Positions 3,530-49,729 of a stretch of 64,000 nucleotides of DNA are shown in pieces. Below the pieces are notes generated by a model. The model saw only the letters and a list, made by a program, of their open reading frames with translations. It was not told the DNA's origin and made no database searches. The position numbers and the translations under genes were made by a program. This DNA is from a phage. Location of the stretch: NCBI GenBank assembly GCA_014685065.1, contig GCA_014685065.1_4092.1, one strand, 5' to 3'. The number at the start of each line of letters is the position of its first letter. Position 1 is the first letter of the stretch.

Positions 3530-3567
3530 ATTCGCAATTCGATAATATCCGATGCCATCATCGTCAA

Positions 3568-3592: not shown

Positions 3593-3731
3593 TTACCTTC
3601 ATTCCCCTGCGGGGGGATGTAATAGTCCTCAACAAATCCCGTCAAGTTTTTAAAGTACATTATCATTTTCAGAAGGAACTAGTTTACGAAGTAAACGCAG
3701 TGACTTCTTGAGTTACGAGAGAACGAAGTGA

Positions 3732-4160: not shown

Positions 4161-4192
4161 ATAATAAGAGAATAACTCTAAGGAGAGATATT

Positions 4193-4633
4193 ATGGAAGA
4201 TATTAATGATTTACGACACGTAATGGACTTTATCGGAAGTACTGAAGAAGATAATTCATATGATGAAGTACTATTAACTTTTATTGAAAATAGTTTGTTT
4301 TTAAGTTCTGCTGCACATAACTGGCACTTACAATGTCATTTTTATACAAAGCATTTACAATTAGATGAACTATATAAAGAATTACCAGAATATGTAGACG
4401 CATTTGTTGAAGGTATCATGAATAATCGTGGTGCTTTGCAAGTTGGGACTGGTAATAGTTATCGTTTTACACCAATTGAAGATTGTGTACCAATTCTTGA
4501 AGAATATGTTGAGCAATGCAGAGCAATTCATGATATGCTTGAAGAATCGGGTGATTACGGCAGTGTAAACACATTAGAAGATATTATGAGTTTTGTTGAA
4601 GGAACACTTTACAAACTTAAAGTTTTACAATAA
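4193..4633 (+). CDS. ferritin/Dps-like four-helix-bundle protein (tentative)
   Basis: AGGAG RBS; motif AAHNWHLQCHFYTKHLQLDELYKELPEYVDAFVE resembles Dps HWNV..F..LH..fde signature. Confidence 0.35.
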   Translation: MEDINDLRHVMDFIGSTEEDNSYDEVLLTFIENSLFLSSAAHNWHLQCHFYTKHLQLDELYKELPEYVDAFVEGIMNNRGALQVGTGNSYRFTPIEDCVPILEEYVEQCRAIHDMLEESGDYGSVNTLEDIMSFVEGTLYKLKVLQ

Positions 4634-4640
4634 AATATAC

Positions 4641-4670
4641 GGAGAGTCTTTTTGACTCTCCTTTTCTTTT
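4641..4670 (+). terminator. intrinsic terminator
   Basis: GGAGAGTC ttttt GACTCTCC then TTTTCTTTT. Confidence 0.7.
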
Positions 4671-4681
4671 GGAGAAATAAT

Positions 4682-5314
4682 ATGAAATCGCATGAATTAG
4701 CAAAATTACTACTGTCTCAACCGAATCTAGACATTTATCATTATGATGCAGAGAGTGACTTGCATTATCAGAATTTTGATAATAGATTAATGGTTACACC
4801 ATCTGGTATTTTCACCACAGTAAAAACCACATTAGATTATGAAAATGTACTTACTCCATACCATACACCACTCTTGGGTCACGTCCAAATTTTCTTTAAG
4901 GATGGTACTATTACTCCAAAATTGGAGGGTTCACATATCCAAACTGTTCTTAACTTAGAATATGGGTTGGTATTTAACATTCCTTATGAAAAGCCAATTA
5001 TTTTATTAGGTAAAAATCAATCAACACAATTCACTAATCAACATGCTGTTTGTTATACATCCGATGATATTGATTTCATTTCAGTACTGACAGAATATGA
5101 TCCTAATACTTGGCATGAAACATGGGAAAATATGTCATATGATGAAGCAATTGAATGTGGTAAAAATTTAGCCAAAATGTTATTTCCACCGAAAAAAGAA
5201 CTTTCACAAGAACAAAATGAATCATTTTCTAAAGATTTTCCTGATTCTGAATTCAATGTTAAAGCATCAACTACCAAAATTGGTGAATTTCTAAATGAAA
5301 ATCAAAAAGATTAA
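4682..5314 (+). CDS. hypothetical protein, paralog family B
   Basis: GGAG RBS; N-terminus HELAKLLLSQPNLDIYHYD similar to 5684-6268 KDLAALLMQNPEMEVYHEH. Confidence 0.55.
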   Translation: MKSHELAKLLLSQPNLDIYHYDAESDLHYQNFDNRLMVTPSGIFTTVKTTLDYENVLTPYHTPLLGHVQIFFKDGTITPKLEGSHIQTVLNLEYGLVFNIPYEKPIILLGKNQSTQFTNQHAVCYTSDDIDFISVLTEYDPNTWHETWENMSYDEAIECGKNLAKMLFPPKKELSQEQNESFSKDFPDSEFNVKASTTKIGEFLNENQKD

Positions 5315-5687
5315 ATTCCACCAGCATTGTTCTATACATGTCTGTGATGATTGTGGTATACAAATGAGTGATATTTATACAGTTTCCTGTAAAGGTTTCA
5401 AATTCACTCATGGTGAACCTGCTTACTGTTATGGCACAGAAGAAGGTGATATCGAGATAGTACTGAAAGAATTGTTCCAGTACTTGCAAAGTGTCGGTCA
5501 TGATGTTACAATACCCACATATTATGAAGATGATTATGATGCACATGTGGAAGAAAATACATATTATAATCAATTCGTTTATGGTAATGGTTTTATCACA
5601 TACCTACATGAGAATGGTATTGAGGTAAAAACTAAGTACACCAGTGATGATTATGATGATGATAATTCTATGGAGATTGAAGATTGA
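5295..5687 (+). CDS. hypothetical protein (Cys-rich N-terminus, acidic C-terminus)
   Basis: ORF 130 aa. Confidence 0.45.
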   Translation: MKIKKIKFHQHCSIHVCDDCGIQMSDIYTVSCKGFKFTHGEPAYCYGTEEGDIEIVLKELFQYLQSVGHDVTIPTYYEDDYDAHVEENTYYNQFVYGNGFITYLHENGIEVKTKYTSDDYDDDNSMEIED

Positions 5688-6268
5688 AAGCAAAAGACTT
5701 GGCAGCACTGTTGATGCAGAATCCTGAAATGGAAGTGTATCATGAGCACATGCACATTGATGACATGTGTGACGCTTACTATTCACCAGAAAATGTGTCT
5801 GGTATTGAAATCACCCCTAGTGGAGTATTCATCAGTACTGAACGTATTGATTATAATTCCCAGCAAGAAATCAAAACTCCACATAATAAACCTCGCATTG
5901 GTGCAATTGACCTAGTATTTCATCAGGACCGTTTGGTGGAATATGATGAAGACGATGGTACTACCCGAACTGATGTTGAGAATGTTGTTTTTCGTTTTTA
6001 TAATGCATACGAAGACCCAACTACTGGAGAAGATTTCTTCCGTGAGCTATTAGAGGATGGAGAAGTTTATGGTCAGGATGGTACGGTTTTTGTACTAGAC
6101 CCTAACTATGAGCCAGATCACAATACATGGCAATTCTATACACCAGAAGATGTAATGGAAGTTAAAGTACTTATGGATATTGACGATAAATGGAATCCTA
6201 TGTATACTTCAATGACATATGAAGAAGCCAAAGAATACTTCGTTTCTAAACTAAACATTACAAAATAA
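5684..6268 (+). CDS. hypothetical protein, paralog family B
   Basis: paralog of 4682-5314. Confidence 0.55.
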   Translation: MKAKDLAALLMQNPEMEVYHEHMHIDDMCDAYYSPENVSGIEITPSGVFISTERIDYNSQQEIKTPHNKPRIGAIDLVFHQDRLVEYDEDDGTTRTDVENVVFRFYNAYEDPTTGEDFFRELLEDGEVYGQDGTVFVLDPNYEPDHNTWQFYTPEDVMEVKVLMDIDDKWNPMYTSMTYEEAKEYFVSKLNITK

Positions 6269-6285
6269 TAAGGATTCACAAATTT

Positions 6286-6567
6286 ATGAAAATTGTTGCA
6301 AGTGCATGGATGAAACTACCAGATGGTACAACTGCTTTTGAAGAATATGGCTTTGTTGAAAGTGTCGATGAATTAAAGCGTTTCAAAAGTGAAAATGATG
6401 ATGATGTGTTTGATATTGTATTTGTATATCATCATATTCCTAATGATACTGATTATGAACATTATTATTATCATCCTGATTTGTTGGAAACACTTGTATG
6501 CGACAACTATCATGAAATTGATGAAAATACAGCTTTACTAATGTTGAGTACCGTATCTCCGGTATAA
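6286..6567 (+). CDS. hypothetical protein
   Basis: ORF with AAGGA RBS. Confidence 0.5.
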   Translation: MKIVASAWMKLPDGTTAFEEYGFVESVDELKRFKSENDDDVFDIVFVYHHIPNDTDYEHYYYHPDLLETLVCDNYHEIDENTALLMLSTVSPV

Positions 6568-6575
6568 GGAGTAAT

Positions 6576-7055
6576 ATGTATAATCTTATAATTATCCGCG
6601 AACCATATGAATCTGACAACAGTTCAACTGATGGTGAGGTTTTAGTATATCAAAGTTATGAACAAAGTGGTATTGAACATGAATTAAAAGATTATTTACG
6701 TCAACATATATATCTATATCGTACAGAACCACGTGAACAGTATGGAGATATAATGTTTATCGTAACTCATAATGGTGCAGTAATTGAACATGTAAATATG
6801 ACAAATAACATGTATTTTCATAATTACACTGACACGTCTAAAGAATTAGGAAACGATTTCAAGTCTGTTTTCGATGCATTGCGTATCAATTTTTTTAAAA
6901 ATGACAAATTCTGTACTGATATTAGATTAGAAGAAGCAAATACAAAAAAGAAACTTTCTCGAAAATACGAGAGTGATAGAAAAAAAGAACAAGAGATTCA
7001 GCGTTTACACGAATTGATGAAAAAATACCCTAATGAGGTACAGCATGGCTCTTAG
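6576..7055 (+). CDS. hypothetical protein
   Basis: ORF with AAGGAG RBS. Confidence 0.5.
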   Translation: MYNLIIIREPYESDNSSTDGEVLVYQSYEQSGIEHELKDYLRQHIYLYRTEPREQYGDIMFIVTHNGAVIEHVNMTNNMYFHNYTDTSKELGNDFKSVFDALRINFFKNDKFCTDIRLEEANTKKKLSRKYESDRKKEQEIQRLHELMKKYPNEVQHGS

Positions 7056-7383
7056 AGGTTCAAATCAATATAAATGTATTGCAGAGATCAGGAAGAAAGA
7101 TGGAACACTTGTAGACCGAGCATTGAAGCAAGAATATAAAGAACTACGTGATGTGGTGCATAATGATAGTTATGGCGGGATGCGTCGTCAAAAAATTTAT
7201 GAATATCTAAAGAAAGGTTTAGAAATTCAGGTTAATGGTCTTCATTGTATTCAAACAAAAAACGATCCTGATATTCTACGTTTGTTGAAAGAAGATAAGA
7301 TTGAAATGTTTAATGTTCCTATTTCATTCTATGGTAATAAACTAAAATGTAAGCATACTTTCTTGAGGATTAAAAATGGTTGA
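7045..7383 (+). CDS. hypothetical protein
   Basis: ORF; ATG 7045 with GAGG RBS preferred. Confidence 0.45.
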   Translation: MALRGSNQYKCIAEIRKKDGTLVDRALKQEYKELRDVVHNDSYGGMRRQKIYEYLKKGLEIQVNGLHCIQTKNDPDILRLLKEDKIEMFNVPISFYGNKLKCKHTFLRIKNG

Positions 7384-7600
7384 TTCATTTATGAAAAAAA
7401 TCTTTAAAAATTTACTATCTGGATTTGAAAAAGCAGTCCGTCTTATTTTCAGTTCAGTTGTAATGGTTATTACAGTACTGGCATTTTCTCTAGTACTGCA
7501 TTTTGTACCATTCTGGTTAGTCTTTATTGTACTTATTGCTCTGCTAGGTGCACATGTTTATTATGTTTACCGTGACGCATTGGATGATGATAACGATTAA
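7376..7600 (+). CDS. small membrane protein with two predicted TM helices (holin candidate, speculative)
   Basis: two long hydrophobic stretches, GAGGA RBS. Confidence 0.4.
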   Translation: MVDSFMKKIFKNLLSGFEKAVRLIFSSVVMVITVLAFSLVLHFVPFWLVFIVLIALLGAHVYYVYRDALDDDND

Positions 7601-7608
7601 ATGTATTT

Positions 7609-7633
7609 GACCTCACTATGTGGGGTCTTTTTT
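7609..7633 (+). terminator. intrinsic terminator
   Basis: 7-bp stem GACCTCA/TGGGGTC with G-U pair then TTTTTT. Confidence 0.45.
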
Positions 7634-7645
7634 AAGGAAAATTAT

Positions 7646-8098
7646 ATGCTTATAGAAACAGAAACATTTAAGCGTTTTATAGACGTATGTCGTGATACGT
7701 GTTTTTGTTTTCTTTCATCACAAGAACAGTTCGATGCAATGAGTGATGTGTTAGGATATCGCCGTTCGGTATTGATGAATTTTGATGGTCCTTTGATTGA
7801 AGTTCATGATGATGTGTATTCCCTCCAATATGTATCAATTAACAATGCGTTCATTTTTATTGCTGACTCGTACTCAATTGTAGTTGAGGAACGTGGTAAA
7901 GGTATACCAACAACACACTATATTGATTGTCAAAGAACTGATTGTGTTTATAGTTCTGGACTAATACAAACACCAATTCCATATCCTAGCATTTATATAA
8001 ACACACTCCATCGAGAAATTATTGAGTACTGTAATAGTATTTCTGATACAGATACACAGTATTTTCCTATTGTATTATTGAAAGGAGTTAGAATATGA
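7646..8098 (+). CDS. hypothetical protein
   Basis: ORF, AAGGA RBS, start after terminator. Confidence 0.5.
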   Translation: MLIETETFKRFIDVCRDTCFCFLSSQEQFDAMSDVLGYRRSVLMNFDGPLIEVHDDVYSLQYVSINNAFIFIADSYSIVVEERGKGIPTTHYIDCQRTDCVYSSGLIQTPIPYPSIYINTLHREIIEYCNSISDTDTQYFPIVLLKGVRI

Positions 8099-8484
8099 GA
8101 TGGAAGAAACGTCACATTAAGCGTTTTGAGAAAATAATTAAAAAATATTACTCACATAAGTTAGATCCAATGATTCTTCAGCTAAGGACCAGTATGTTTG
8201 ATAGACGTTATCCGCAGTGTTTAGAATCGTACAGTCGTAAGGGTTCCAAGAATGAATACCAGGTGTATCGTTATGATTTATCTGAATTGTTTTTGAATAC
8301 TCGTGTATCAGTACCAATCAAGCTGTACTCAAGGGTAAAACGAAGTAGGGTTCAAGATATTACATATGGATATCTTATGATTGAAATCGACGACCTCAAT
8401 GAAAAAACTGGCAGAAATTACAGTACTTTATGTCTGGAAAATCATGATTCAATAAAAAGAATCATAGAAGAGTTGGGAAAGTAA
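8095..8484 (+). CDS. hypothetical protein
   Basis: ORF, ATGA overlap. Confidence 0.5.
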   Translation: MRWKKRHIKRFEKIIKKYYSHKLDPMILQLRTSMFDRRYPQCLESYSRKGSKNEYQVYRYDLSELFLNTRVSVPIKLYSRVKRSRVQDITYGYLMIEIDDLNEKTGRNYSTLCLENHDSIKRIIEELGK

Positions 8485-8513
8485 GATTTTTAGTGCTATA
8501 ATTGGAGATGAGT

Positions 8514-8858
8514 ATGAAATACATCGATAAAGGTACAGTGGAGACACAGTACTGGAATATCCATATTGCTGGTGATATTCAAACAGCAAGAGAGTACACA
8601 AGAAAGTTTGCGTTTAAGCATGGCTTTTGTGTACAATTAATTCCCTGTGAATATATCTACACTGGCGGTCTTGAAAGTGGGATGTGTGCTCGTATTATTC
8701 AGTACCCACGCTTTCCAAAAGAAGAAGTATATCTCAACCGAGATGTATTAAACTATGCAAAGGGTTTAGCTGAAGAGTTGTGTCAAAAGAGCTTTACTAT
8801 AGAGCGAAATAATGATACAATTTATTATGAAAGTGATGAACCTTTACACAAGAAATAA
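8514..8858 (+). CDS. hypothetical protein
   Basis: ORF, GGAG RBS. Confidence 0.5.
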   Translation: MKYIDKGTVETQYWNIHIAGDIQTAREYTRKFAFKHGFCVQLIPCEYIYTGGLESGMCARIIQYPRFPKEEVYLNRDVLNYAKGLAEELCQKSFTIERNNDTIYYESDEPLHKK

Positions 8859-8869
8859 AAGGAAAATAT

Positions 8870-9001
8870 ATGAATGGACTAAAGAAATTTGGTAAAGATT
8901 TTCTAAAATGTATACGCTATACATATGATGCAAACCCAGAAATGACTGCTATTGTGGGTGTGTTTATTACACTCGTTGTATTAAGCTTTATTGTGGTGTA
9001 A
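8870..9001 (+). CDS. small C-terminally TM-anchored protein (43 aa)
   Basis: ORF below track cutoff, AGGA RBS, hydrophobic tail AIVGVFITLVVLSFIVV. Confidence 0.35.
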   Translation: MNGLKKFGKDFLKCIRYTYDANPEMTAIVGVFITLVVLSFIVV

Positions 9002-9004
9002 CAT

Positions 9005-37380: not shown

Positions 37381-38871
37381 TTAAACTACAGAAACCCCAC
37401 TCATTGAAGGTGGAACGATTTGCTCAGCAATTAATAATAAATTAGTGACTGTAAACTTGCCACCATGTGACATTAACGTAATAGGTGTTCCATTAGTTAC
37501 TAGGTTACCATTTTCATCAACACTTAAAAATGTATTAAATGAAATAGTATCAACTGTGATTGTTGGTGTTCTAACTTGGTTAATATTATTAAATTGAGTA
37601 TTTGTAAAATTAATAGCAAAACTCATATTAGATGAACTAGTAGTCCATGTACCGTATATATTTAATTTGAAATTTAGAGATGAATTGAAATTATAAACAT
37701 TTAGCTTATTACTTGTTGTATTGAAGAAACTATCTAGTGTTCCACTAGTGGGGGTCAATGATTTAAGTATTTGAATTAAATTCTGTTCAATACCATCTGT
37801 GAATTGTATATTTAAGTTTGAATAATATAATTCTCTTTTTCTACGAACTAGGTTAGTAGTATTATTACCATTAACAAATAATCCAGAACTATCTGATGTT
37901 AATATATTACCAGAGGTATTACTTATTTTAGACGAAATAACATTACTGTCAATAGTTATACCATTTCCAGCAGTATATGAGGATGGTCCAGTCGGTACAT
38001 ATAACCCATTTACGTCAGTTGTTAAAGTATTTCCTGGTGTTGTGCTTATTTTGGTTGAAATTGTTTCTGAACTAATTGATATACCAGTACCACCAACGTA
38101 ATTTATTCTTGTATTAGGCACAAACAATCCAGTACTGTCAGTAGATAGTATATTACCAGAAGTAGAACTAATTTTAGCACTTATTATATCAGAATTAATT
38201 GAAATTCCGTTACCAGCATTATAAGTTACAGTATTGTTAGGAACAAATAAACCATTGCTAGTAGAAGATAATATATTTTCTGGCGTAGGGTCAACCTCAA
38301 CACTAATCACTTCATCACTAATTACAATCCCATTACCCGCATTGTACGTTATCGAATTATCAGGTACGAATAGACCCGTACTATCAGTTGTAAGGATATT
38401 TCCTAAAGATGTGCTTACTTTTGATGATATAATATTATTATCTATTTTAATACTGTCACTACCTGTATATGTTACTGTATTATCAGGTACATATAAACCA
38501 TCTTCGGCAATAGTAAGGATGTTATTAGGTGATGTACTTATTTTAGTTGAGATAGTATTATCACTTATTGTCACACCAGTGCCACCAGAATACACAATTG
38601 ATGTATTAGGAACATATAAACCATTAGAATCATTACTAAGAATATTTCCTTGTGTTGAACTGATTTTTGTTGATATTAAATTAGAGGTTATTGATATACC
38701 AGTACCACCTTGATAGTTAATAGTGTTATCTGGAACATATAAACCATCACTTTCATGAATTAAAATATTTTTATTTTTAGAACTAATATCAGGTACTGGA
38801 ATCTTACCTATTAGAACACCGTCATAACTGATATCACCATTTACAATAATATCTGTTCTTATATTATACAT
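37381..38871 (-). CDS. tail fibre protein with ~35-aa tandem repeats
   Basis: repeating unit GNIL..D..GL(Y/F)VP(D/N)N...Y.(A/G)G.GI.I....IS.K(I/V)S at least eight times. Confidence 0.55.
   Translation of the reverse strand: MYNIRTDIIVNGDISYDGVLIGKIPVPDISSKNKNILIHESDGLYVPDNTINYQGGTGISITSNLISTKISSTQGNILSNDSNGLYVPNTSIVYSGGTGVTISDNTISTKISTSPNNILTIAEDGLYVPDNTVTYTGSDSIKIDNNIISSKVSTSLGNILTTDSTGLFVPDNSITYNAGNGIVISDEVISVEVDPTPENILSSTSNGLFVPNNTVTYNAGNGISINSDIISAKISSTSGNILSTDSTGLFVPNTRINYVGGTGISISSETISTKISTTPGNTLTTDVNGLYVPTGPSSYTAGNGITIDSNVISSKISNTSGNILTSDSSGLFVNGNNTTNLVRRKRELYYSNLNIQFTDGIEQNLIQILKSLTPTSGTLDSFFNTTSNKLNVYNFNSSLNFKLNIYGTWTTSSSNMSFAINFTNTQFNNINQVRTPTITVDTISFNTFLSVDENGNLVTNGTPITLMSHGGKFTVTNLLLIAEQIVPPSMSGVSVV
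37880..38810 (-). repeat. tandem ~105-nt coding repeats inside fibre gene
   Basis: periodic amino-acid motif in translation. Confidence 0.5.
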
Positions 38872-39771: not shown

Positions 39772-42700
39772 TTAAGCTGTACGTTGTGCAATAAACATAT
39801 CTACAACTGGACTTACACCATCATAAATGACTTGGTAAATGGTCACAGAGTTTGCAGTTTTGTTTAGAGTGCCATCAACAACCGCATAAGTACCATCAGT
39901 AGTAAAGTTTCTGTTACCAGTTGCATCTTGTTTCACATAAATGTATACTGAAGATGCTTTACCACCACCGATTAGACCAGTGATTGGTGCTAGAGTTGTA
40001 TCTTGATCAAGGGTGATAAAGTATACGTTGCTAGTACCATCAGGAGTCCAAGTACCAGTTGGTGCAATAACAGAAGAAGTTACTTGATTAGGAATAACAT
40101 CATATTTTTTAGTAGTTACAGTAGTAGTAGTTAAATCAGCATTAGTTGTTGTTAGTTGACCAGTAACTGTTACATTTTTGTCAAACACAGCATTTTCTTT
40201 GAAAGAAGATGTTGCATTAACAGTTAATGTATCAGCAGCAGCGTCACCTAGAACAACACTACCATTTGCAGTCATTAAACCAGTAACAGTTAAAGTACCA
40301 CCTACGGTTGCTGCACCAGTTACAGATGCACTAGCAAGAGTAGCTGCACCAGAAGTAGTAATTGTAGTTACAGAAGTAGCACCAAGGGTAGCAGTACCAG
40401 TTGCAGAAATATCACCACCGACAGTTAGGTTACCAGAAGTAATACCAACAGTTCCTGTGATATTCGCACCACTTGACATAGTAACTGCACCACCGAATGA
40501 ACCAGTAGTAGTTACTTCAAGAGTGTTACCTTTTAGTAAACCAGTTGCAGTAATGCTTGTTCCTGCGGTAATACTAGTACCAGCAGCAACACTGTTAGTT
40601 GCAGTTAAAGATTTAACAGCCACATCAGAGTTAGCTTGGTTTAGCGTTGCGTTTAGAACACCCGTTACTGTAAAGTTACCATTGTTAACTACGTTACCAT
40701 TGATGGTTAAGTTGTTGTTTTGTGAACCAACATCACCAATAGTTGCAGATTTAGAAATCAATTCTGCACCAGATGTGATATTACCTGCTGCACTAATAGT
40801 ATCAGCAGCAACAACAGCATATGGTTCGATAGTTTGACCACTAACATCGATATCAGCGTTGATACCACCGTCTACACGCAAGGAACCTGCGATGTAAGTG
40901 TTAGGGAAAATCTGAACTGTTTCTGGTTGATCACCAATTTTTGTACCAATTACAACGTTCGCACCAGTTTTAACTGCACCAGATGTTGTTAGTGAACCTA
41001 AAGTTGCTTCACCAACTACACCTAATGTACCACCTACGGTTGCGTTATTAGTAACTGCCAAAGCTGTTCCTTCACCGTTAAGGGTGATAGATGGAGCAGT
41101 CGCTGCACCAGTTACGCCCAATGTACCACCTACGGTTGCGTTGCCATCAGAATGTAGTGTAGTAGCTACAGAAAGACTGTTTGCAACTACATCAGTACTT
41201 GCAAGATCCAATGCACCTGGTGTTAATGTACCAGTAATGTTAACATTATTACCAAAGGTTGCTGCACCAGTAACATCTAGAGTTGTACTAAATGTACCAG
41301 AAGTTGCAGAAACAGCACCAGAATCTAGTGAACCGACAGTTGCTTTTCCAGTTACACCTAGTGTACCACCTACAGTTGCGTCGGTTGTTACACCTAATGT
41401 ACCAGTACTAACTTCTTGAGCGGTTGCTTTACCAGATGCAGTAATAGTTGAAGTAGATACTCCCCCAGTTAATGTGCTTGCACCAGTTACTGCTAAAGTT
41501 GTTGCTGCTGTTACGCTGTTCACGTTAAGGTCAGCACCAGCTAGGTTCAAACCACCTTCAGGAATAAATTCACCCTTCACTGTTAGTTTTTGTACTGTAC
41601 TATCACCAGTGACTGCTAGTGTAGATGCAGTTAAACCACCATTCATACTAGCTGCACCAGTTACACCGAGTGTAGTGGTTACAACAGCACTATTAAGAGT
41701 AGCAGTGTCGGAAATATTAGCACTTGGTGCAGCAATAGTCCCAGCATCAACTTGAATACCACCAGTAACAACTTGGATACCACCAGCATTAACAGTGAGT
41801 TTACCAGCAGTGTTTAAGGTATTTGATACAGTTGTAGCACCAGATAGTGTACTTGTACCAGTAACACTTAGATTACCAGAAATTATTGGGCTACCAGTTA
41901 CATTACCAGTTGTTAGAATTAAATCAGTACCTACAGTTGTAGAACCAGTACTTTCTAATGTTACACCAACAATGTTAGAAGAACTTAGGTTAATTGAACC
42001 TGTTACAGTCAAGTCACCATTAACAGTTGCGTTACCTAGTGAATTTAATGATTTCACTGAAACATCAGTAGTGCTAAGGTCAATTACACCCGCAGTTAAT
42101 GTACCAGATACAGCCAAATCACCAGTGATTGCAGTGTTTTTAGTAATAGAAACACTTTCAGCAGCAGAAGTTAGAGAACCAACAGTCAAAGCACCGCCGA
42201 CAGTGGCGTTATTAGTAACGTTAAGTGCAGTACCAACACCAGATAGTGTTGCAGACGCACCATTAACAGCACCAGAGATATTTGCATTTGCAGCAGATAC
42301 ATCACCTGAAACAGCCGCAGTTGTTGCATTTACTGTAGTTGCGGTAATATCAGTACTTTGTACTTTTGGTAGTAGGTTAACACCTTCAGCACTACTAACA
42401 GTGATGATTCCAGCACTTGTTAGAGATTTTACTGATACATCAGCAGCAGATAGGTCTACAGTACCAGAAACAACAAGGTCACCACCAATATTTGCACCAG
42501 CAGTTGTTGTGATTGATTTAGCATTAACATCAGTTGTTGTTAAATCAATAGCACCTGGTGTTACTGTACCAGAAACTGTTAGGTCACCAGTAATAGATGT
42601 ATTATTAGCAATAGATACACCCGCAGTATTACCAATGGTTGGAACTTCAATAGAAACTGCTGTAACTTTACCAGAAGATGTTACATCAGCAACAGAAGTT

Positions 42701-45297
42701 GCACCAGTTACATTCAAATTAGTAATATTCGCAGTAGTAGAACCTAGAGTTGCAATTGTCGCATCAGTACTTTGTAGTTTAGGTAGAACACTACTAATAG
42801 TTGATTCATTACTAACGATTGCACCAGTACTGGTTAGAGATTTAACTGTTACATCAGCAGCAGTTAGGTCTACTGTACCGTTAACGGTTAAGTTTCCACC
42901 AATTGTTGCACCAGCAGTTGTTGTGATTGATTTAGCGTTAACATCAGTTGATGCTAGGTCGATAGATCCAGGAATCACAGCACCACTAACAGTTAAGTCA
43001 CCAGTGATAGAAGTATTATTACCAATTGTAACACCAGTTACATTGGAAATAGATGGAGTAACTAGAGATGCAGTTGTTGTTTCACCACTTACATTTAAAG
43101 TTGTTCCGACTACAACATCAGCACTTGTACGAACAGATGCTAGATTAGATGGACCTGTTACCGCAAGTTCAGTTGCATTAACAGTATTAATTGTTGCAGT
43201 AGTACTATTAAGTACTGGTAAAACGTTGGCGTTAACCAAATCATTACTTTTAACAATACCAGAAGTTGTTACAGATTTAACGTTAAGGTCAGCGGCTGAT
43301 AAATCAAATGACCCTTGAACAACTAAATCACCACCAATTGTTGCACCAGCAGTTGTTGTAATAGAGTTTGCATTAATATCAGTAGTGCTTAGATCTAAAG
43401 AACCTACAGTTAAACTACCAGTAATATCAACGTTTTCAGTAAAGTTAGTATTTCCAGTAATAGTTGGAGCAGAAAGACTTGTAGCACTAATAGTTGTACC
43501 ATTAATAGTTCCACCACTTAGTATACCACTTGCAGTAATAGTTGGAGCACTTACTTCAGTGGATGCAGTAATAGATGGTGCAGATACAGATGTTGTACCA
43601 GTAATAACACCAGCATTAATAGAACCAGCAGATAATGCACCAGATAGATTTGCAGTAGTACCTGCAATATCACCTGTAACGGTTAGTTTAGCACCTACAG
43701 TAGTATTTCCAGTACTTTCAAGAGTTGCACCTTTCACGTTTGCAGCAGCTACAACAGAGTTAGGAGTTAAGTTTTGACCACTAACATCAACAGTTAGGCC
43801 AGTAACAGTACCAGTGAAATCAACATCATTAAGAATAGTTTTACCACCAACTTGTAGGAATGGTGTACCTGGGGCTTGTGTTTCATTACCAGTGATAGTT
43901 AGGTAATCTAGTTTGTTAAGACCGTTACCAGTAATACCATAGGTAGATAGTGAAGCATTACCAAAAGTTGCGGTTTTTAGAACATTCAATGTTGCAGGTG
44001 AAACAACTTCTGATTGAACTTCGTTAGGTAAAATAACAGTTGGGCGTTGGCCTGGTGCTGTATATCCAAATCCTAATTTAACTGCTGCATCTTGACTGTT
44101 TTGACCCAAGCTAATGGATTTGAAAGAAGCAGTACTATTAAAGCCAGTGATATTTGAACCTAAAGTTACTGCACCAGTTAGTGAAGATGTACCAGTAACA
44201 TTCAATGAAACTGCATTAATATCGTCAAGTTGGAATGTACCACCTAGTAGACCAGAAACGTTAATGTTATTAAAGTTTGCGGTTCCTGTACTTTCAATAT
44301 TTGGAATAGTTGCTGTACCAGTAACTTCAAAGTCAGCAACTTTGGTTTTACCCTTTTGAACTTCCAATAGTGGGGTGTCTGGTGATTGAGTATTGTTACC
44401 AGATACAGTTAGGTAATCTAGTTTGTTAAGACCGTTACCAGTAATACCATAAGAAGAAAGAGAAGCGTTACCAAATGTTGCAGATGTCAAAACTGTTAAA
44501 TTTGCAGGTGACATTAATTCAGATTGAATTTCGTTTTGAAGAACTACAGTAGGACGTTTACCCGGAGCACTGTAAGGGAAGCTTAGTCTGAAGGTTTGAG
44601 ATTCAGAGTTGGAACCAATACGAATGTCTTTAAAAGTAGCAGTACTGTTAATACCAGTTACGTTAGCACCGAAAGTCACTGCACCTTGTTGGTTAGATGC
44701 ACCAGAAACGTTCAATGTTACTGCATTTAAGTCAGAAAGATTAAACTGACCACCTAATGTACCACTAATGGTTACATCTTTAAAAGTAGCAGTTCCAGTA
44801 CTACTAATATCGGTTGTACTTACATTAGTAATTTCTGCGGTATTAGCAGTAATTTTATCAAATGCAGCAGTAGTACCAACATCAGCAGTAATATTACCTT
44901 TAAATGCTGTTGTTTCAGCAACTTCTAAGTTTTTAACTTTAGTTGCTTGTAGAGTGGTTGTACCAGCAGTTTGTGTAAAATCAGAACCAACTGATACAGT
45001 ACCGTTAAAGGTAGCGTTTGAATTAATTGTTGCTGTATCAGACCCGACAACTGCACTACCGATTGTAGTATTACCCTCAACACCAAGACCACCAGAAAGT
45101 GTTGCTTTGCCACCAACATCTAAAGTAGATGTAATGTTGGCAGTTGATGATTCAATGGCAGTAAAAGTTGCATTTGCAAAAGTTACAGTACCATTTACAG
45201 TTAGGTTATTATTGAAAACAGCATTTCCTTTGACTAAAAGATCCTTACCAACCGTACCAGCACCAGTAATATCTAAGTCAGTTTTTATTGAGTACAT
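39772..45297 (-). CDS. long tail fibre protein (1841 aa) with extensive T/G/S/A/V-rich repeats
   Basis: continuous ORF, GGAGGG RBS, low-complexity beta-strand-like repeats. Confidence 0.6.
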   Translation of the reverse strand: MYSIKTDLDITGAGTVGKDLLVKGNAVFNNNLTVNGTVTFANATFTAIESSTANITSTLDVGGKATLSGGLGVEGNTTIGSAVVGSDTATINSNATFNGTVSVGSDFTQTAGTTTLQATKVKNLEVAETTAFKGNITADVGTTAAFDKITANTAEITNVSTTDISSTGTATFKDVTISGTLGGQFNLSDLNAVTLNVSGASNQQGAVTFGANVTGINSTATFKDIRIGSNSESQTFRLSFPYSAPGKRPTVVLQNEIQSELMSPANLTVLTSATFGNASLSSYGITGNGLNKLDYLTVSGNNTQSPDTPLLEVQKGKTKVADFEVTGTATIPNIESTGTANFNNINVSGLLGGTFQLDDINAVSLNVTGTSSLTGAVTLGSNITGFNSTASFKSISLGQNSQDAAVKLGFGYTAPGQRPTVILPNEVQSEVVSPATLNVLKTATFGNASLSTYGITGNGLNKLDYLTITGNETQAPGTPFLQVGGKTILNDVDFTGTVTGLTVDVSGQNLTPNSVVAAANVKGATLESTGNTTVGAKLTVTGDIAGTTANLSGALSAGSINAGVITGTTSVSAPSITASTEVSAPTITASGILSGGTINGTTISATSLSAPTITGNTNFTENVDITGSLTVGSLDLSTTDINANSITTTAGATIGGDLVVQGSFDLSAADLNVKSVTTSGIVKSNDLVNANVLPVLNSTTATINTVNATELAVTGPSNLASVRTSADVVVGTTLNVSGETTTASLVTPSISNVTGVTIGNNTSITGDLTVSGAVIPGSIDLASTDVNAKSITTTAGATIGGNLTVNGTVDLTAADVTVKSLTSTGAIVSNESTISSVLPKLQSTDATIATLGSTTANITNLNVTGATSVADVTSSGKVTAVSIEVPTIGNTAGVSIANNTSITGDLTVSGTVTPGAIDLTTTDVNAKSITTTAGANIGGDLVVSGTVDLSAADVSVKSLTSAGIITVSSAEGVNLLPKVQSTDITATTVNATTAAVSGDVSAANANISGAVNGASATLSGVGTALNVTNNATVGGALTVGSLTSAAESVSITKNTAITGDLAVSGTLTAGVIDLSTTDVSVKSLNSLGNATVNGDLTVTGSINLSSSNIVGVTLESTGSTTVGTDLILTTGNVTGSPIISGNLSVTGTSTLSGATTVSNTLNTAGKLTVNAGGIQVVTGGIQVDAGTIAAPSANISDTATLNSAVVTTTLGVTGAASMNGGLTASTLAVTGDSTVQKLTVKGEFIPEGGLNLAGADLNVNSVTAATTLAVTGASTLTGGVSTSTITASGKATAQEVSTGTLGVTTDATVGGTLGVTGKATVGSLDSGAVSATSGTFSTTLDVTGAATFGNNVNITGTLTPGALDLASTDVVANSLSVATTLHSDGNATVGGTLGVTGAATAPSITLNGEGTALAVTNNATVGGTLGVVGEATLGSLTTSGAVKTGANVVIGTKIGDQPETVQIFPNTYIAGSLRVDGGINADIDVSGQTIEPYAVVAADTISAAGNITSGAELISKSATIGDVGSQNNNLTINGNVVNNGNFTVTGVLNATLNQANSDVAVKSLTATNSVAAGTSITAGTSITATGLLKGNTLEVTTTGSFGGAVTMSSGANITGTVGITSGNLTVGGDISATGTATLGATSVTTITTSGAATLASASVTGAATVGGTLTVTGLMTANGSVVLGDAAADTLTVNATSSFKENAVFDKNVTVTGQLTTTNADLTTTTVTTKKYDVIPNQVTSSVIAPTGTWTPDGTSNVYFITLDQDTTLAPITGLIGGGKASSVYIYVKQDATGNRNFTTDGTYAVVDGTLNKTANSVTIYQVIYDGVSPVVDMFIAQRTA

Positions 45298-45390
45298 TTA
45301 TACCCTCCATTATAACCTTGTTAATATGTATATATTTAGTTTTATTATGCTGTTATCCAACAATTAATACATTATTTGACAAAAGCAAAT

Positions 45391-45428
45391 ATAATAAAAA
45401 ACCAGACTTATTTAGAACAAGTCTGGTT
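45391..45428 (-). terminator. intrinsic terminator (minus strand)
   Basis: AACCAGACTT / AAGTCTGGTT hairpin then TTTTATTAT on minus strand. Confidence 0.6.
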
Positions 45429-45434
45429 AATTTT

Positions 45435-46331
45435 TTACTTACCGGAGATGACAATCTTACCACTGAAAGAAATATCAGAAGTGAAGATTACATCACCAGT
45501 ACTACTAATTTGTGTATCAGTCACTACCAACTCGAATGGAGATGACGCAACACTTCCAGGTGTTTTATTTGCATAAATTGAAATATACAAATTATCTGGG
45601 GTTTGATTGTGTTCGGATGCTGGAATAGTGATTGTGAAATCACCAGCACTAGAAACCCAATCTGCTTGGTTTACTAATTTACTATAAGGTACTGTCATTG
45701 TGGTTGCTCCTATAATGTTTACTTTAACACTTGCATAATCTGTGATTTGACCAATCACATCAATTGTTATATCCCCAATACCACTAACTGTTACTGTGGT
45801 TTGGAATACTGATTCCAATGCAACATTACCTGGGTCACCTTGTAGTTGAATCATAATATCAGAACCTCTACCATGAACTGATTCTGGTAGTGTGTAAGTA
45901 TAATGATCAGTAGTATCTGGTACTAATGTAAATGCAGAAACAGGAACTATTTCAGTAGTTACATATGAGCTATCAGTTCCAGGTGAGCTACCTTTAAATG
46001 GTTTCCAAATACCAAGATCTTTAATATAAATTTGAAGAACATTAGTACTATCAACCAAAAAGTAAACGTCACCATCTAGACCAATAGAATCGGATGGTGC
46101 TGTTGTTCCACGTAAGATACCAGAACTACCACCACCACTGTGTGCGTTTAAATATCCCAATGTAACCAAGTGTGTGTTTGCAGTTGGTTCACCTGCTGAA
46201 ATTGGAAGAAGTTGTGTTCCTGAGTAGTTTTGAATTTGCACAACACTACCATTTGTGGTAATCTGTGCACCATTCTTCCCAAGAATGAAGGACTTCTTCA
46301 TGGTTCCTTCTAAATTAGAAAAAACTGCCAT
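45435..46331 (-). CDS. short tail fibre / receptor-binding protein with conserved N-terminal anchor
   Basis: N-terminus MAVFSNLEGTMKKSFILGKNGAQI shared with next gene; AAGGAG RBS. Confidence 0.5.
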   Translation of the reverse strand: MAVFSNLEGTMKKSFILGKNGAQITTNGSVVQIQNYSGTQLLPISAGEPTANTHLVTLGYLNAHSGGGSSGILRGTTAPSDSIGLDGDVYFLVDSTNVLQIYIKDLGIWKPFKGSSPGTDSSYVTTEIVPVSAFTLVPDTTDHYTYTLPESVHGRGSDIMIQLQGDPGNVALESVFQTTVTVSGIGDITIDVIGQITDYASVKVNIIGATTMTVPYSKLVNQADWVSSAGDFTITIPASEHNQTPDNLYISIYANKTPGSVASSPFELVVTDTQISSTGDVIFTSDISFSGKIVISGK

Positions 46332-46347
46332 TTTAATATAATCTCCT

Positions 46348-48489
46348 TTATGGTAGGGTTATGTAAGTTACGGGTTGGGCGGCTTTTAATGCTGCACCAG
46401 CGGCAGTTGCTGTTATGATAGGATCTGCAATATCAATTCTATATACGTTGTTTACAACATACACTGCACGAGTTATATACGTTCTCAAATCACCACCATT
46501 TTCACCAGCACCAGATATAATAATCTCAGTACCAGCAGCTTTTGCATATTGGTTTTCACCCCATGACACACCCAATGCTTCTATATATGTTTGTCCTACT
46601 ACGGTTTGTCTAATAGTGTCGTATTTTCCGAAAAAAGAACCACCAACGGTCACAATATATTTTCCACCAGATTGCTTATGTATAATAGTACCTTCTGGGA
46701 AATAACGACCACCCGGAAAAGTGTCGTAGGGAATATAATATTGTTCAACTACTGGTATCAGTACTGGGCCACGGTGACCTGTACCATCGATTGCAGTTGT
46801 AACTTTAAAGTTATTAGATGATTGGTCTATTCTGTCTACATACATTTTAGAAAAACTATATTTTGAAACATTACAATCATCTTGAACAACACAGTTAGTC
46901 CAATTAGTATAAGTATATTTAGAGCGAGTATAGATACCACCACCTTCGCCTTCTGTAGAGAGATGTTGACCAATTACGTCTAATTCTTTAGTTCTAATAT
47001 CACTAAATTTAGATGATGATGGTAAACCACGCCAAAGAATTTTAGAACAGGTGATATTGCTCAATTCTGTATTATTTAACCAATTGTCAGAACCGGAAGT
47101 ATAAACAAGTATAGAAGACTCTGGAATATAGAGATTAGAAATTTTAAAGTTTCTAGGTGGTCCAGCAAAACGACCAGAAGTTACACCCCAGTTTATTGAA
47201 ACCATTCTATTTGTGATAGAAGGATCATTAAGCAAATGACCAGTCAACCCATCAATAATGAATTCTTTAGAACCATAAGTTATAACACCAGCAGTGGTTA
47301 ATCCAGTACCGACAGAAACTAAAGATGATGGATAAACTTCATTATTAAGTATTTTAAAGTCCATGCCTAATTCAACGTGGATACATTGTCTAACATTATA
47401 TAGTCTGTTATTTTTAATAACAAAGTTTCTGACATATTGTGTATCTGGTGCATCTAAACCATAAGGACCAGAACCAGCAACACCAATACCAATACCCCAG
47501 TTTGAAAGTGGGATTGGAGCGTTAGAACCATCAACGTTTTCAATTATGTTCCCTTCAATAACAAAACCATCAGGATAGTGTGAGTTAATTACGTTTAGTT
47601 CAATTGCATCACCATATATATCATGTATGTGGTTATATGAATATCTACCAACCTTCATTTTCTCACCAGTACCTTGTTGAAGAACACCATACTTACATTG
47701 GGTCATTTCATTAAAGCAAAAATCTATTGTACCTGGTTGTGTCATGCCTTGCATTAAAAATGCAGCAGTACTTGTGATGTTTATAAATTTATTAAAATAA
47801 AACTTACCATCGCCACCGAAGAATTTTAAATAACATCCAGTAAGTGTTGCAAATTGTATTTGGGAATTAATAACGGATACCATAGTACCACCGTTACCAG
47901 TAATAGTTCCCCCAAACCAAGTTACATCTTCCAGATATATTGCCGTTTTGATACGGTAATTACCACCAGCCTGAATTTGTATTTTATTTTCTTTAGCATA
48001 CGCAGCACATAAATTTACAGCAGCAGTGTCATCAGTTTCGCCATCACCTTTAGCACCAAATTCTTCTGGTGTTATATAAAACTGTGCCTGTTGAACTGTA
48101 CCTCCAGTAATAAGTCCGATGAAATCTCCACCATTTTTACTGGATAGAACTTTTTTATTAATGTATAATGATTTTACCCATGTACCATTGCTTTTTGCAA
48201 AAATATCAACAATACCATCTTCATCAATTTGAAAATACGTATTATTGTTCTTTCCTATATCATCGGTAGGTGGTACAACACCAAATAATGCATTAGGGTT
48301 ATCTTCAAGATATTTTACGTTAACTGCTGAATTAGGATCAGATGAAGTTCCTACCTTCAGTGGTAGGAACTGTTCTCCTAGATAATCTTTTATAGAAACT
48401 GAATCATTGATAAAATTTATTGAAGCACCTTTTTTCCCCAATATGAATTTGGGCTGCATAGTTCCTTCAAAATTAGAAAATACTGCCAT
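46348..48489 (-). CDS. tailspike with right-handed beta-helix (pectate-lyase-like) domain, probable polysaccharide depolymerase
   Basis: N-terminal anchor MAVFSNFEGTMQPKFILGKKGASI; beta-helix-like repeats with GDAIEL, NNRLYN motifs; GGGAGGA RBS. Confidence 0.55.
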   Translation of the reverse strand: MAVFSNFEGTMQPKFILGKKGASINFINDSVSIKDYLGEQFLPLKVGTSSDPNSAVNVKYLEDNPNALFGVVPPTDDIGKNNNTYFQIDEDGIVDIFAKSNGTWVKSLYINKKVLSSKNGGDFIGLITGGTVQQAQFYITPEEFGAKGDGETDDTAAVNLCAAYAKENKIQIQAGGNYRIKTAIYLEDVTWFGGTITGNGGTMVSVINSQIQFATLTGCYLKFFGGDGKFYFNKFINITSTAAFLMQGMTQPGTIDFCFNEMTQCKYGVLQQGTGEKMKVGRYSYNHIHDIYGDAIELNVINSHYPDGFVIEGNIIENVDGSNAPIPLSNWGIGIGVAGSGPYGLDAPDTQYVRNFVIKNNRLYNVRQCIHVELGMDFKILNNEVYPSSLVSVGTGLTTAGVITYGSKEFIIDGLTGHLLNDPSITNRMVSINWGVTSGRFAGPPRNFKISNLYIPESSILVYTSGSDNWLNNTELSNITCSKILWRGLPSSSKFSDIRTKELDVIGQHLSTEGEGGGIYTRSKYTYTNWTNCVVQDDCNVSKYSFSKMYVDRIDQSSNNFKVTTAIDGTGHRGPVLIPVVEQYYIPYDTFPGGRYFPEGTIIHKQSGGKYIVTVGGSFFGKYDTIRQTVVGQTYIEALGVSWGENQYAKAAGTEIIISGAGENGGDLRTYITRAVYVVNNVYRIDIADPIITATAAGAALKAAQPVTYITLP

Positions 48490-48503
48490 TATGACATCCT
48501 CCC

Positions 48504-49619
48504 TTAAATATTATCTTGAATCGGTTGGATAGGAGCTTGCCATGAAAGAGTACAAATAATTTCCATTTTTCCATAAGGACTGTTGTTAACAGAATCGTTG
48601 AATACACATGAAATAATTTCATCAACATCGGATGCTGCATGATTAGTTTCATTAACAATAAAACGCATCTGACGATTGATATCAAAGTAGGAAGTTGGTG
48701 CAATTACAGTCCCACCAATATCTTCTTGTGCTTCACCACCAAAACGTACAAACATATCAGTTACAGGAAGAGAATAAGGTTGTATAACGTTTACATCAAT
48801 ATTAGAAACTACATATCCAGCAGGACACGTACCAATAACTAATAGTGCGTTAGTCCATGAGCTATCTATTGTATTTCTAATAGAAATTGTATCTTTACCT
48901 GGTGCACCTGGTTCGCCTTGTATACCTTGAATACCTTGCTGACCTTCTTTACCACGGAATAGAATACCATCACTCCACTCTTTTGAAGGAGGGGTAGTTG
49001 TAGTTACTTCATCAACATAATATAGTTTTCCATCAGTGTTGTTATAAAAACAATAATCAACTGGAAGATTTTCAATACTTGGAAATTGATCACCACTGCT
49101 ATCAATATGGAAACGACCACGCGGACCTTGTTCACCACGGAAAGGGATACCATCACTCCAAGTGGCAGTTACACTTTGATAGAAATAAAGCTTACCATCT
49201 TGAGTATTATAAAATGTATAGTTATTAAAAAGACCAGTTGTTGGGAAAGAAGTCCCAGCACTATCAATGTGGAACGGCTTACCCGCTTCACCAGTATCAC
49301 CTTTACCAAACTCAACACTAATCCATGTACTTGTCGGATCTTGTGCATCGTTTGATTTAAAGTATAGAGTACTGGTATTGTTAGCCAAGCTTAAGTAGCA
49401 CCACCCAAGTGGTTCACCAACTTTAAATTGTTCGGAAGGAATTTCAAAACCAATCTCATTAGGATAAAAGTTTTTACCATTCTCGCCATTCTGTCCTACA
49501 ACAAGACCTAAATCTTGAATTGTGTTATCTGCATAGGTTACAATTAAATGCCCAGCACCATTAATAACTAGACTTTTGATGCCGGAGTTATTACATGAAC
49601 CATTAAATGAAATTGTCAT
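48504..49619 (-). CDS. fibre protein with collagen-like Gly-X-Y tracts and triplicated module
   Basis: GEQGPRGRF and GKEGQQGIQGIQGEPGAPGKD; ATG 49619 with AAGGGA RBS preferred over TTG at 49655. Confidence 0.5.
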   Translation of the reverse strand: MTISFNGSCNNSGIKSLVINGAGHLIVTYADNTIQDLGLVVGQNGENGKNFYPNEIGFEIPSEQFKVGEPLGWCYLSLANNTSTLYFKSNDAQDPTSTWISVEFGKGDTGEAGKPFHIDSAGTSFPTTGLFNNYTFYNTQDGKLYFYQSVTATWSDGIPFRGEQGPRGRFHIDSSGDQFPSIENLPVDYCFYNNTDGKLYYVDEVTTTTPPSKEWSDGILFRGKEGQQGIQGIQGEPGAPGKDTISIRNTIDSSWTNALLVIGTCPAGYVVSNIDVNVIQPYSLPVTDMFVRFGGEAQEDIGGTVIAPTSYFDINRQMRFIVNETNHAASDVDEIISCVFNDSVNNSPYGKMEIICTLSWQAPIQPIQDNI

Positions 49620-49729
49620 AATATTTCCCTTGTATGAGTTAATGTCATATACCAATATTTATCAGTACAAAATACATTTCGTTATCATTAATAAATAAAT
49701 GAAAGTTCACTACTAAAAGGGCTTAAACA

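Follow-up and report, generated by a model that had tools for sequence, protein, structure and literature searches.

A jumbo coliphage of the PBECO4/121Q type encodes two adjacent tail proteins, one a predicted colanic-acid hydrolase, that share an N-terminal module

Two neighbouring genes of a jumbo coliphage encode tail proteins of 713 and 298 amino acids with a common N-terminal domain and unlike sequences after it. Both lie in a stretch of 64,000 nucleotides that we analysed as a whole (the window). Its source is a PBECO4/121Q-type phage (Asteriusvirus): the window DNA is 98.4% identical to phage slurp01 and ~98% identical to PBECO4 and 121Q. The probable explanation of the pair is that a virion-type colanidase tailspike and a conserved tail protein share a two-part docking module (hereafter the anchor), the colanidase fusion having been inserted in this lineage. 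The case draws on homologies, gene order, distribution among phages, domain boundaries and the presence in virions of an orthologue of the smaller protein. We infer that the colanidase is attached to the virion through its anchor, and that it is trimeric.

Both open reading frames are those named in a preliminary description of this DNA, on the minus strand at 45435-46331 (298 aa) and 46348-48489 (713 aa). The features of the locus, in window coordinates, are as follows.

45400..45428, minus strand: intrinsic-terminator-like hairpin, a 13-bp stem then a T-run, after the 298-aa gene
45435..46331, minus strand: 298-aa conserved virion structural protein gene, orthologue of 121Q gp572, GAP32_221 and CBB_227
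45435..45995, minus strand: two predicted small beta-sandwich domains with an invariant FSGK..ISGK end (residues 113-298 of the 298-aa protein, plus stop)
45996..46331, minus strand: anchor of the 298-aa protein, sub-modules A and B with a Gly-rich linker between them (residues 1-112)
46348..48489, minus strand: 713-aa predicted colanidase tailspike gene, orthologue of 121Q gp573 and PBECO4 gp547
46348..48168, minus strand: predicted catalytic module, WcaM/PF27800-type and pectate-lyase-like, with the C-terminal part (colanidase residues ~108-713, plus stop)
48169..48300, minus strand: anchor sub-module B, a predicted small four-strand beta unit with a conserved Trp at its end (colanidase residues 64-107)
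48301..48489, minus strand: anchor sub-module A, MAVFSNFEGTM..FILGKKGA... (colanidase residues 1-63)
48504..49655, minus strand: 'tail protein' gene, a 383-aa mechanical ORF, orthologue of 121Q gp574

The three protein-coding genes appear to form one transcription unit, with the 'tail protein' gene first and the terminator closing it. This reading follows from the short gaps and from the hairpin after the 298-aa gene: the stop codon of the upstream gene lies 14 nt ahead of the colanidase ATG, and 16 nt separate the 713-aa and 298-aa genes, each of which is preceded by a Shine-Dalgarno-like sequence. Sigma-70-type promoters were not found above chance (20, with 22.9 expected), and we therefore claim none. 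The product of the first gene matches phrog_13565 'tail protein' (E=7.5e-220) from residue 13 onwards, and Met13 is the annotated start in relatives. This gene stands immediately upstream of an anchor-bearing gene in every Rak2-like genus examined. A 375-aa match in a viral fold search prompted a comparison of the 'tail protein' with the 298-aa family and with the anchor; kinship was rejected at an hhalign probability of 0.1-0.2%. The variable receptor-binding-type gene of the cluster sits elsewhere, at 37381-38871, and the giant fibre gene occupies 39772-45297.

The 713-aa enzyme is already known, its PBECO4 counterpart being the same gene. It shares 709 of its 713 residues with PBECO4 AGC35227, a 'putative colanic acid degrading protein', and matches phrog_6117 'colanic acid degradation' with E=5e-264. 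Homology to a solved colanidase spans the whole catalytic body: residues 96-712 match chain residues 11-623 of PDB 6E0V (phi92 gp150) with E=1e-236. The motifs GDAIEL and NNRLYN, singled out earlier as beta-helix-like repeats, are present and fall within this aligned region. The capsule depolymerase suggested in the preliminary description is borne out in that the protein is predicted to depolymerise a polysaccharide and to belong to the pectate-lyase-like, beta-helix class; homology to phi92 gp150 and 99% identity to the PBECO4 protein place it as a colanidase. Its match to PF12708 (E=5.9e-5) falls under the curated cut-off; homologues are tagged PF27800, and some carry PF13229 Beta_helix or the name 'right-handed parallel beta helix'. 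The activity itself we take from the literature on the two homologues, by which the 713-aa protein would be a colanic-acid hydrolase. [quoted passage not shown] 2015 (AEM 81:900), and one in PMC13450770, citing Xu et al. 2025, reports that phi92 gp150 hydrolyses colanic acid at the beta-1,4 Glc-Fuc bond. By tblastn the catalytic module occurs in 255 phage records (~58% identity in Justusliebigvirus), and in other phages it follows at least five other N-terminal anchors (PF26208, PF18668, PF09008, PF12571 and PF03906).

The neighbouring gene product is, by homology, the ~290-aa structural protein that Rak2-like jumbo phages conserve in their tails, and a full-length member of phrog_10468 'virion structural protein' (E=5.5e-100). 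Save for one 203-aa fragment, its 73 homologues are 285-309 aa long at 100% coverage; they are 41-100% identical and come from phages of E. coli, Cronobacter, Yersinia, Erwinia and Salmonella. The C-terminal domains of the family are conserved, with mean pairwise identities of 43-54%, and its C-terminal motif is invariant. Moreover, the orthologue CBB_227 was detected in CBB virions by mass spectrometry (PMC5259590 Table 4). The family keeps its position between the 'tail protein' and giant fibre genes in 121Q, GAP32, EJP2 and CBB; in 121Q the colanidase gene lies there too, and in the other three it is absent and the order is simply 'tail protein', ~290-aa protein, giant fibre. The preliminary description gave the 298-aa protein a short beta-rich tail; the predicted structure of the protein is almost entirely beta-strand, broken by three brief helical turns. 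The further proposal that it is a swappable receptor-binding protein is contradicted by the full-length homologues and their conserved C-terminal domains.

The likeness between the two N-termini reflects true homology (BLASTP, 42/109 identities or 39%, E=7e-20). Identity is 77% over residues 1-22, 29% over residues 23-63 and 32% over residues 64-104. The preliminary description, which had the two starts near-identical for ~60 residues, thus overstated the identity (47% over the first 60) and understated the extent, since homology reaches ~residue 105. In the DNA, near-identity is confined to the first 33 nt (30/33); past codon 11 the two genes differ at both synonymous and non-synonymous sites. 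The similarity is kept in relatives, where the anchor is conserved: 18 alignment columns are invariant across both families, and anchors inside the colanidase family are 58-86% identical. Between families, residues 1-22 are ~75% identical, which is about the level found within a family and so argues for selection on the anchor.

Within the window, a profile of sub-module A finds only the 713-aa ORF (E=1e-30) and the 298-aa ORF (E=2e-35), and no other anchor carrier was found among the remaining window ORFs or the extra fibre genes of vB_Ec-M-J. The consensus of residues 1-~65 is MA[VI][FY]SN.[ED]GT...[IL]GK.G...P...P...T..Y. The module is autonomous, because RaK2 retains it alone: the RaK2 orthologue, ORF061w, is a 115-aa anchor that ends at the fusion-junction boundary. 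Comparison with T4 gp10-like proteins, the AD/D1/D2 domains of CBA120, the T7 gp17 N-terminus and the P22 head-binding domain revealed no homology, and a sequence-profile search matched no solved structure at E <= 10. Fold searches gave weak or generic matches that serve as hints only, with collagen-like and tail-fibre proteins in BFVD.

Two anchors per genome occur only in PBECO4/121Q-type Asteriusvirus records; elsewhere, Asteriusvirus EJP2 included, there is one. In a library of 1.8 billion proteins sub-module A always starts at residue 1, in carriers of 99-1366 aa; Pfam PF27114 'Phage_tail_beta' is a possible equivalent of it. Sub-module B (~65-107) recurs in collagen-like fibres. Metagenomic copies of sub-module A head Beta_helix bodies, BNR/sialidase-like bodies with CBM5/12, and Peptidase_S74 fibre bodies; across genomes the anchor is further seen in front of the colanidase and of the ~290-aa body, and on its own. 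One unrelated phage contig (L008) encodes two different proteins with sub-module A; these two also have a region in common past it. In another phage the anchor-colanidase fusion occurs at a different genomic position, and a chimeric protein (P0006, from SRR31729320) joins the anchor, the colanidase and the 290-aa protein's last domain, in that order, with both ends of the virion protein kept.

The modular cassette put forward in the preliminary description therefore holds in part. Modularity is real, with the anchor on various bodies in metagenomes, but in PBECO4/121Q-type Asteriusvirus the cassette is constant: the 713-aa/298-aa pair is the same across 34 close relatives. The C-terminal swapping predicted among related phages did not appear at this locus in any sequenced relative, no relative in the phage collection has a different body there, and the other records are single-copy. 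Nor does anything in the analysis show the branched multi-receptor tail that had been envisaged.

In the mechanism we propose, a module of ~105-112 residues would dock both proteins at the same kind of baseplate or tail-periphery site. Docking would probably be determined by the almost invariant first ~22 residues; the second part of the anchor may serve as a small unit for oligomerisation or as a neck. The PBECO4/121Q lineage would have gained a copy of the anchor joined to a colanidase body that is horizontally mobile, by insertion between the 'tail protein' and ~290-aa genes. Envelope stress or selection by phages makes E. coli overproduce colanic acid, and a virion-borne enzyme could cut this capsule and so let the phage reach its receptor on the cell surface.

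Could the colanidase instead be a soluble enzyme outside the virion, a 'moron' freed at lysis to act on biofilm or capsule? Its N-terminal likeness to the neighbour would then be a relic of capture with no docking role. PHROGs does place the colanidase family in the category 'moron, auxiliary metabolic gene and host takeover', the 121Q annotation labels gp572 and gp574 structural and leaves gp573 without that label, and GAP32 has a distant colanidase-like gene, free of the anchor, among non-structural genes. The purified PBECO4 enzyme reportedly degrades colanic acid and works in trans. The phAPEC6 proteome table contains neither protein, and that record annotates neither gene; the 121Q capsid paper and the Sharanji paper contain no virion proteomics on either protein. 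We nevertheless consider a soluble enzyme unlikely. A relic is hard to reconcile with an anchor that is conserved throughout the colanidase family and whose first 22 residues vary no more between families than within them. The gene sits inside a tail-gene unit, homologues in other phages bear tailspike or fibre anchors (PF09008, PF03906 and PF18668), and the chimera retains both virion-protein ends around the enzyme.

A different objection accepts the common anchor and takes both products for receptor-binding proteins of a host-range cassette with exchanged C-termini, the 298-aa protein being a non-enzymatic binder. Both genes lie within the fibre gene cluster, the beta-sandwich domains of the 298-aa protein weakly match adhesin and lectin-like folds, conservation within the protein is lowest in the third domain (43%), and metagenomic sub-module A is joined to various enzymatic bodies. 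This reading too we judge improbable: the homologues keep one length and architecture (apart from the fragment) across at least five host genera and end in an invariant motif, RaK2 does without the 298-aa body entirely, the pair is unchanged in the close relatives, and no phage-collection relative offers another body at the locus. Least probable is that the 5' end of the 298-aa gene was recently duplicated in tandem at this locus to give the pair, or that gene conversion maintains the likeness. The genes are indeed adjacent and in the same orientation, and their first 33 nt are nearly the same, but the pattern of identity led us to reject such events. Colanidase anchors are about equidistant from all 290-family anchors (mean 38%, range 31-46%), and these values are no higher than the lowest one found inside the 290 family (46%); synonymous and non-synonymous sites both differ after codon 11; and the fusion at another position in another phage speaks against a local event. 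Judged by sequence, the two anchors are old paralogues, ~38% identical, and not the product of recent duplication.

The colanidase and its neighbour are thus an ordinary, largely characterised case of modular phage tail proteins. What the analysis contributes is the domain map: the module ends at ~residue 107, is autonomous and is common to a virion protein, and its part A is reused on other enzymes. The map alters no general concept; its use lies in engineering or re-targeting the tail enzymes of jumbo phages and in reading future cryo-EM maps of these baseplates. More tentatively, residues 1-~65 might be a docking adaptor that mounts colanidases, beta-helices, sialidase-like propellers and S74-chaperone fibres in many uncultivated phages, the tail socket being fixed in Rak2-like phages. 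If so, the ~290-aa protein would occupy that socket, RaK2 would fill it with the bare 115-aa anchor, and Asteriusvirus would add the colanidase; the first ~22 residues could serve as a portable tag for loading depolymerases onto jumbo-phage tails; and the chimera would be a snapshot of the insertion of an enzyme into a structural protein. Overproduction of colanic acid (mucoidy) is a common E. coli route to phage resistance. A virion-borne colanidase would be a counter-measure to it, of practical interest for phage cocktails.

Among known systems the closest is PBECO4 gp547, which has the same length and neighbours and shows no difference of substance; in the literature accessible to us we found no mention of an anchor shared by the colanidase and its neighbour. 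The 298-aa protein likewise does not differ from the other members of phrog_10468 (GAP32_221, CBB_227 and 121Q gp572). WcaM (PF27800), a protein of the bacterial colanic-acid gene cluster, has a family tag in common with phage colanidase bodies; it is bacterial and without a phage anchor. One colanidase homologue is called WcaM by its source, and the phage enzyme is wrongly entered as 'colanic acid biosynthesis protein' in several phage records. Homology to phi92 gp150 of Justusliebigvirus (PDB 6E0V/6E0W) takes in the catalytic body, starting at residue ~96-108 and running to the C-terminus. However, phi92-type proteins are ~800 aa long and start with a ~190-aa PF26208 anchor, whereas the protein described here has a ~107-residue module of the Rak2 clade in its place. 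TSP1-4 of CBA120 and gp526-gp534 of RaK2 (with the anchor domain of gp528) embody the same principle, that of modular tailspikes in which a conserved N-terminal attachment module carries an exchangeable enzymatic body (PMC10253068).

Two adjacent proteins encoded in the window share an N-terminal anchor module. Both reading frames lie exactly where the preliminary description had placed them:

46348-48489, minus strand, 713-aa protein, a colanidase
45435-46331, minus strand, 298-aa protein

BLASTP between the two proteins gives a single significant segment (residues 1-109 against 1-104, 39% identity, E=7e-20) and no further significant similarity beyond it. The resemblance is real and far past chance. 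It had been described as near-identity over about 60 residues, which overstates its strength and understates its length: identity is 47% over the first 60 residues, and the homology covers about 105. Identity is 77% for residues 1-22, 29% for 23-63 and 32% for 64-104, and near-identity of the DNA is confined to the first 33 nt (30/33). A search of all ORFs of the window found the module in no others. The original observation is thus confirmed in part, and its interpretation is partly supported.

Across 45300-49700 the window shares 98.4% identity with Escherichia phage vB_Eco_slurp01 and ∼98% with PBECO4, 121Q, G17, phAPEC6 and others. These are Asteriusvirus, Rak2-like E. coli jumbo myophages with genomes of ∼350 kb. 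On the minus strand of 121Q the order is gp574 ('tail protein'), gp573 ('colanic acid degradation'), gp572 ('virion structural protein') and then the giant fibre gp571. The order in GAP32, EJP2 and CBB is ClpA, a structural protein, a gp15-like protein, NUDIX, three reverse genes, the 'tail protein', a ∼290-aa protein and the giant fibre. Because this conserved order runs straight from the 'tail protein' to the ∼290-aa gene, the colanidase is a lineage-specific insertion between them. The surrounding features are:

48504-49655, minus strand, 'tail protein' ORF, 383 aa from a TTG by mechanical ORF call
45428-45400, minus strand, hairpin with a 13-bp stem and a T-run, 3' of the 298-aa gene
39772-45297, minus strand, giant fibre, 1841 aa, rich in T, S, G, A and V and internally repetitive
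41795-43318, 43385-43777 and 44768-45367, plus strand, antisense open frames of up to 507 aa inside the giant fibre

Only 14 nt separate the 'tail protein' stop codon from the colanidase ATG, and 16 nt the colanidase stop from the 298-aa ATG; each ATG is preceded by a Shine-Dalgarno-like sequence. Promoter-like matches in this transcription-unit analysis were no commoner than in shuffled sequence. Relatives annotate the 'tail protein' as 371-375 aa and its PHROG match starts at residue 13, so translation probably begins at the Met13 ATG (∼49619). Its residues 235-253 form a short collagen-like G-X-Y stretch (weak PF01391 match). The antisense frames look like composition artefacts rather than genes.

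The possible capsule depolymerase of the preliminary description is indeed one and, more specifically, a colanidase. The crystallised part of phi92 gp150 (PDB 6E0V/6E0W) aligns with its residues 96-712 (E=1e-236), it falls in the PHROG family 'colanic acid degradation' (E=5e-264), and it matches the 'putative colanic acid degrading protein' of PBECO4 (AGC35227) at 709 of 713 residues. The recombinant ORF547 product of Kim et al. reportedly degrades colanic acid and rescues T7 infection of a mucoid mutant. The PBECO4 homologue is termed gp547 in PMC10059673, with a citation of Kim et al.; phi92 gp150 is reported to hydrolyse the β-1,4 bond between glucose and fucose of colanic acid (PMC13450770, citing Xu et al. 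2025). Colanic-acid hydrolase activity is reported for the PBECO4 and phi92 proteins, and the enzyme was already known and tested. A β-helix fold is predicted from family evidence: the 713-aa protein has a sub-threshold PF12708 match, and among its homologues some bear PF13229 or PF27800/WcaM tags or the name 'right-handed parallel beta helix'.

Database labels for this gene vary. The GenBank records of slurp01, Sharanji, BF17, fEgEco12 and UE-S1 mislabel the phage colanidase 'colanic acid biosynthesis protein', a name presumably transferred from bacterial WcaM, and CRJP21 labels the region 'MutT/NUDIX hydrolase family protein'. Escherichia phage vB_Ec-M-J has the colanidase annotated as two CDS in different reading frames, a frameshift or sequencing error; the 713-aa gene is intact in close relatives such as BF17.

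The catalytic body is highly mobile. It is present in 255 phage records, at ∼58% identity in phi92-like Justusliebigvirus, ∼37% in rV5-like phages and ∼30% in small podoviruses, Phapecoctavirus, and Kosakonia and Klebsiella phages. At least five N-terminal anchors precede it in the protein database: PF26208, PF18668, PF09008 (P22 head-binding), PF12571 (tail collar) and PF03906 (T7 fibre N-terminus). A sister genus has acquired a colanidase-type enzyme independently: GAP32_128 (NC_019401.1, locus 2183-4204; 673 aa, ∼28% identity with the window's catalytic body) lacks the anchor and lies at an unrelated locus among non-structural neighbours (GroES, TyrRS).

The 298-aa protein does not behave as the swappable receptor-binding protein it had been taken for. 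Among its 73 database homologues, 72 are 284-309 aa long with 100% query coverage and 41-100% identity; the other is a 203-aa fragment. The phages that encode them infect E. coli, Cronobacter (GAP32), Yersinia (fHe-Yen9-04), Erwinia and Salmonella. Invariant residues occur over the full length, including a C-terminal FSGK..ISGK motif. Pairwise identity averages 64% and 60% in the two parts of the anchor, and 43% and 54% in the two C-terminal domains. Judged by alignment, this profile fits a conserved structural component rather than a receptor-binding tip specific to the host. Mass spectrometry found the CBB orthologue, CBB_227, in virions (5 peptides, 32% coverage; PMC5259590 Table 4).

The presence/absence-variable gene of receptor-binding type in this cluster is another one, not the colanidase/298-aa pair:

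37381-38871, minus strand, 496-aa ORF with a C-terminal Sf6-type tail-needle-knob domain (PF16532, E=6e-28; phrog_1030)

It sits between the gp569 and gp570 homologues in 5 of 20 matching Asteriusvirus records (two of PBECO4, ELP-22, CRJP21 and UB), and is missing from 121Q, slurp01, G17, phAPEC6, Sharanji and others, where the match is limited to ∼74 nt of flank.

How old is the anchor pair? With the colanidase N-terminus as query, tblastn found 72 phage records, all Rak2-like. PBECO4/121Q-type Asteriusvirus genomes carry two copies. RaK2, K64-1 and other Klebsiella phages, GAP32, CBB, Erwinia, Serratia and Yersinia phages, Xanthomonas XaC1, Salmonella Munch, 7t3 and SE_PL, and E. coli EJP2 carry one. 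The colanidase anchors are about equidistant from every anchor of the 290-aa family (mean 38%, range 31-46%), at or below the lowest identity within that family (46%). The two anchors are therefore old paralogues, and a recent local duplication was rejected. In the vB_Ec-M-J subgroup, whose identity to the window is ∼80%, two additional 'tail fiber' genes, EcMJ_304 and EcMJ_305, separate the giant fibre from the 298-aa homologue; the anchor is absent from both. These genes and the divided colanidase lie at 7006-11926 and 12959-15101 of that locus.

When 1.84 billion representative proteins were searched with a profile built from 18 anchors, the 395 matches split the module into sub-module A (residues 1 to ∼65) and sub-module B (∼65-107/112). 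Sub-module A is invariably at the extreme N-terminus, in proteins of 99-1366 aa. The bodies behind it include a right-handed β-helix (metagenomic protein P0147), a Peptidase_S74 chaperone domain typical of fibres (P0143) and, in six proteins of ∼1200-1366 aa, BNR/sialidase-like propellers with CBM5/12. Sub-module B, a motif of ∼45 aa, recurs 4-15 times within large proteins, several of them with collagen repeats. No solved structure matched the anchor by sequence. An unrelated ∼120-kb phage contig encodes two different tail proteins both headed by sub-module A, so the arrangement of two proteins with one anchor arose more than once.

Natural variants fix the domain boundary. RaK2 ORF061w (115 aa) consists of sub-modules A and B alone; it shares 60% identity with residues 1-112 of the 298-aa protein and stops just past a conserved Trp-Lys-Pro. 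In the metagenomic protein P0006 (792 aa), anchor and colanidase are followed by the C-terminal ∼90 residues of the 290-aa family (E=5e-26 and 5e-13). In a related phage (Logan SRR31729320 contig, 6320-8698), its gene follows the gp569 homologue and adjoins thymidylate synthase, a different fibre-cluster position from that of the window colanidase; the contig stops short of where a separate ∼290-aa gene is expected.

We propose that the first ∼107 residues would mount the colanidase on the virion, at the kind of site that the conserved 298-aa protein also uses. Residues 1-22 are the best candidate contact because they are as conserved between the families as within them, and sub-module B may serve in oligomerisation or as a neck. 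The giant fibre, strongly divergent among genera (30-37% identity), is missing from RaK2, which retains the 'tail protein' gene; this gene content of RaK2 argues weakly for an anchor partner other than the giant fibre. Once mounted, the enzyme would strip stressed or mucoid E. coli of their colanic-acid layer, giving the phage access to its receptor. We rate lower a soluble colanidase that is not bound to the virion: the PHROG category, and the fact that no proteome evidence for the colanidase was found, allow it, but the anchor is conserved, the gene sits within the tail-gene unit, and the architecture of P0006 also speaks against it. The absence of gp254 and gp255 (colanidase and 298-aa protein) from the published phAPEC6 virion proteome is uninformative because the phAPEC6 record (MK817115.1, locus ∼4000-7190) has no CDS for either; the DNA is 97.8% identical to the window.

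In the available literature we found no description of the gp573/gp572 N-terminal paralogy, the two-part anchor and its wide use, the bare anchor of RaK2 or the sandwich chimera P0006. These are useful details on a known kind of system: the anchor-plus-body modularity seen here is textbook, like that of CBA120 and of RaK2 gp526-534 (PMC10253068).
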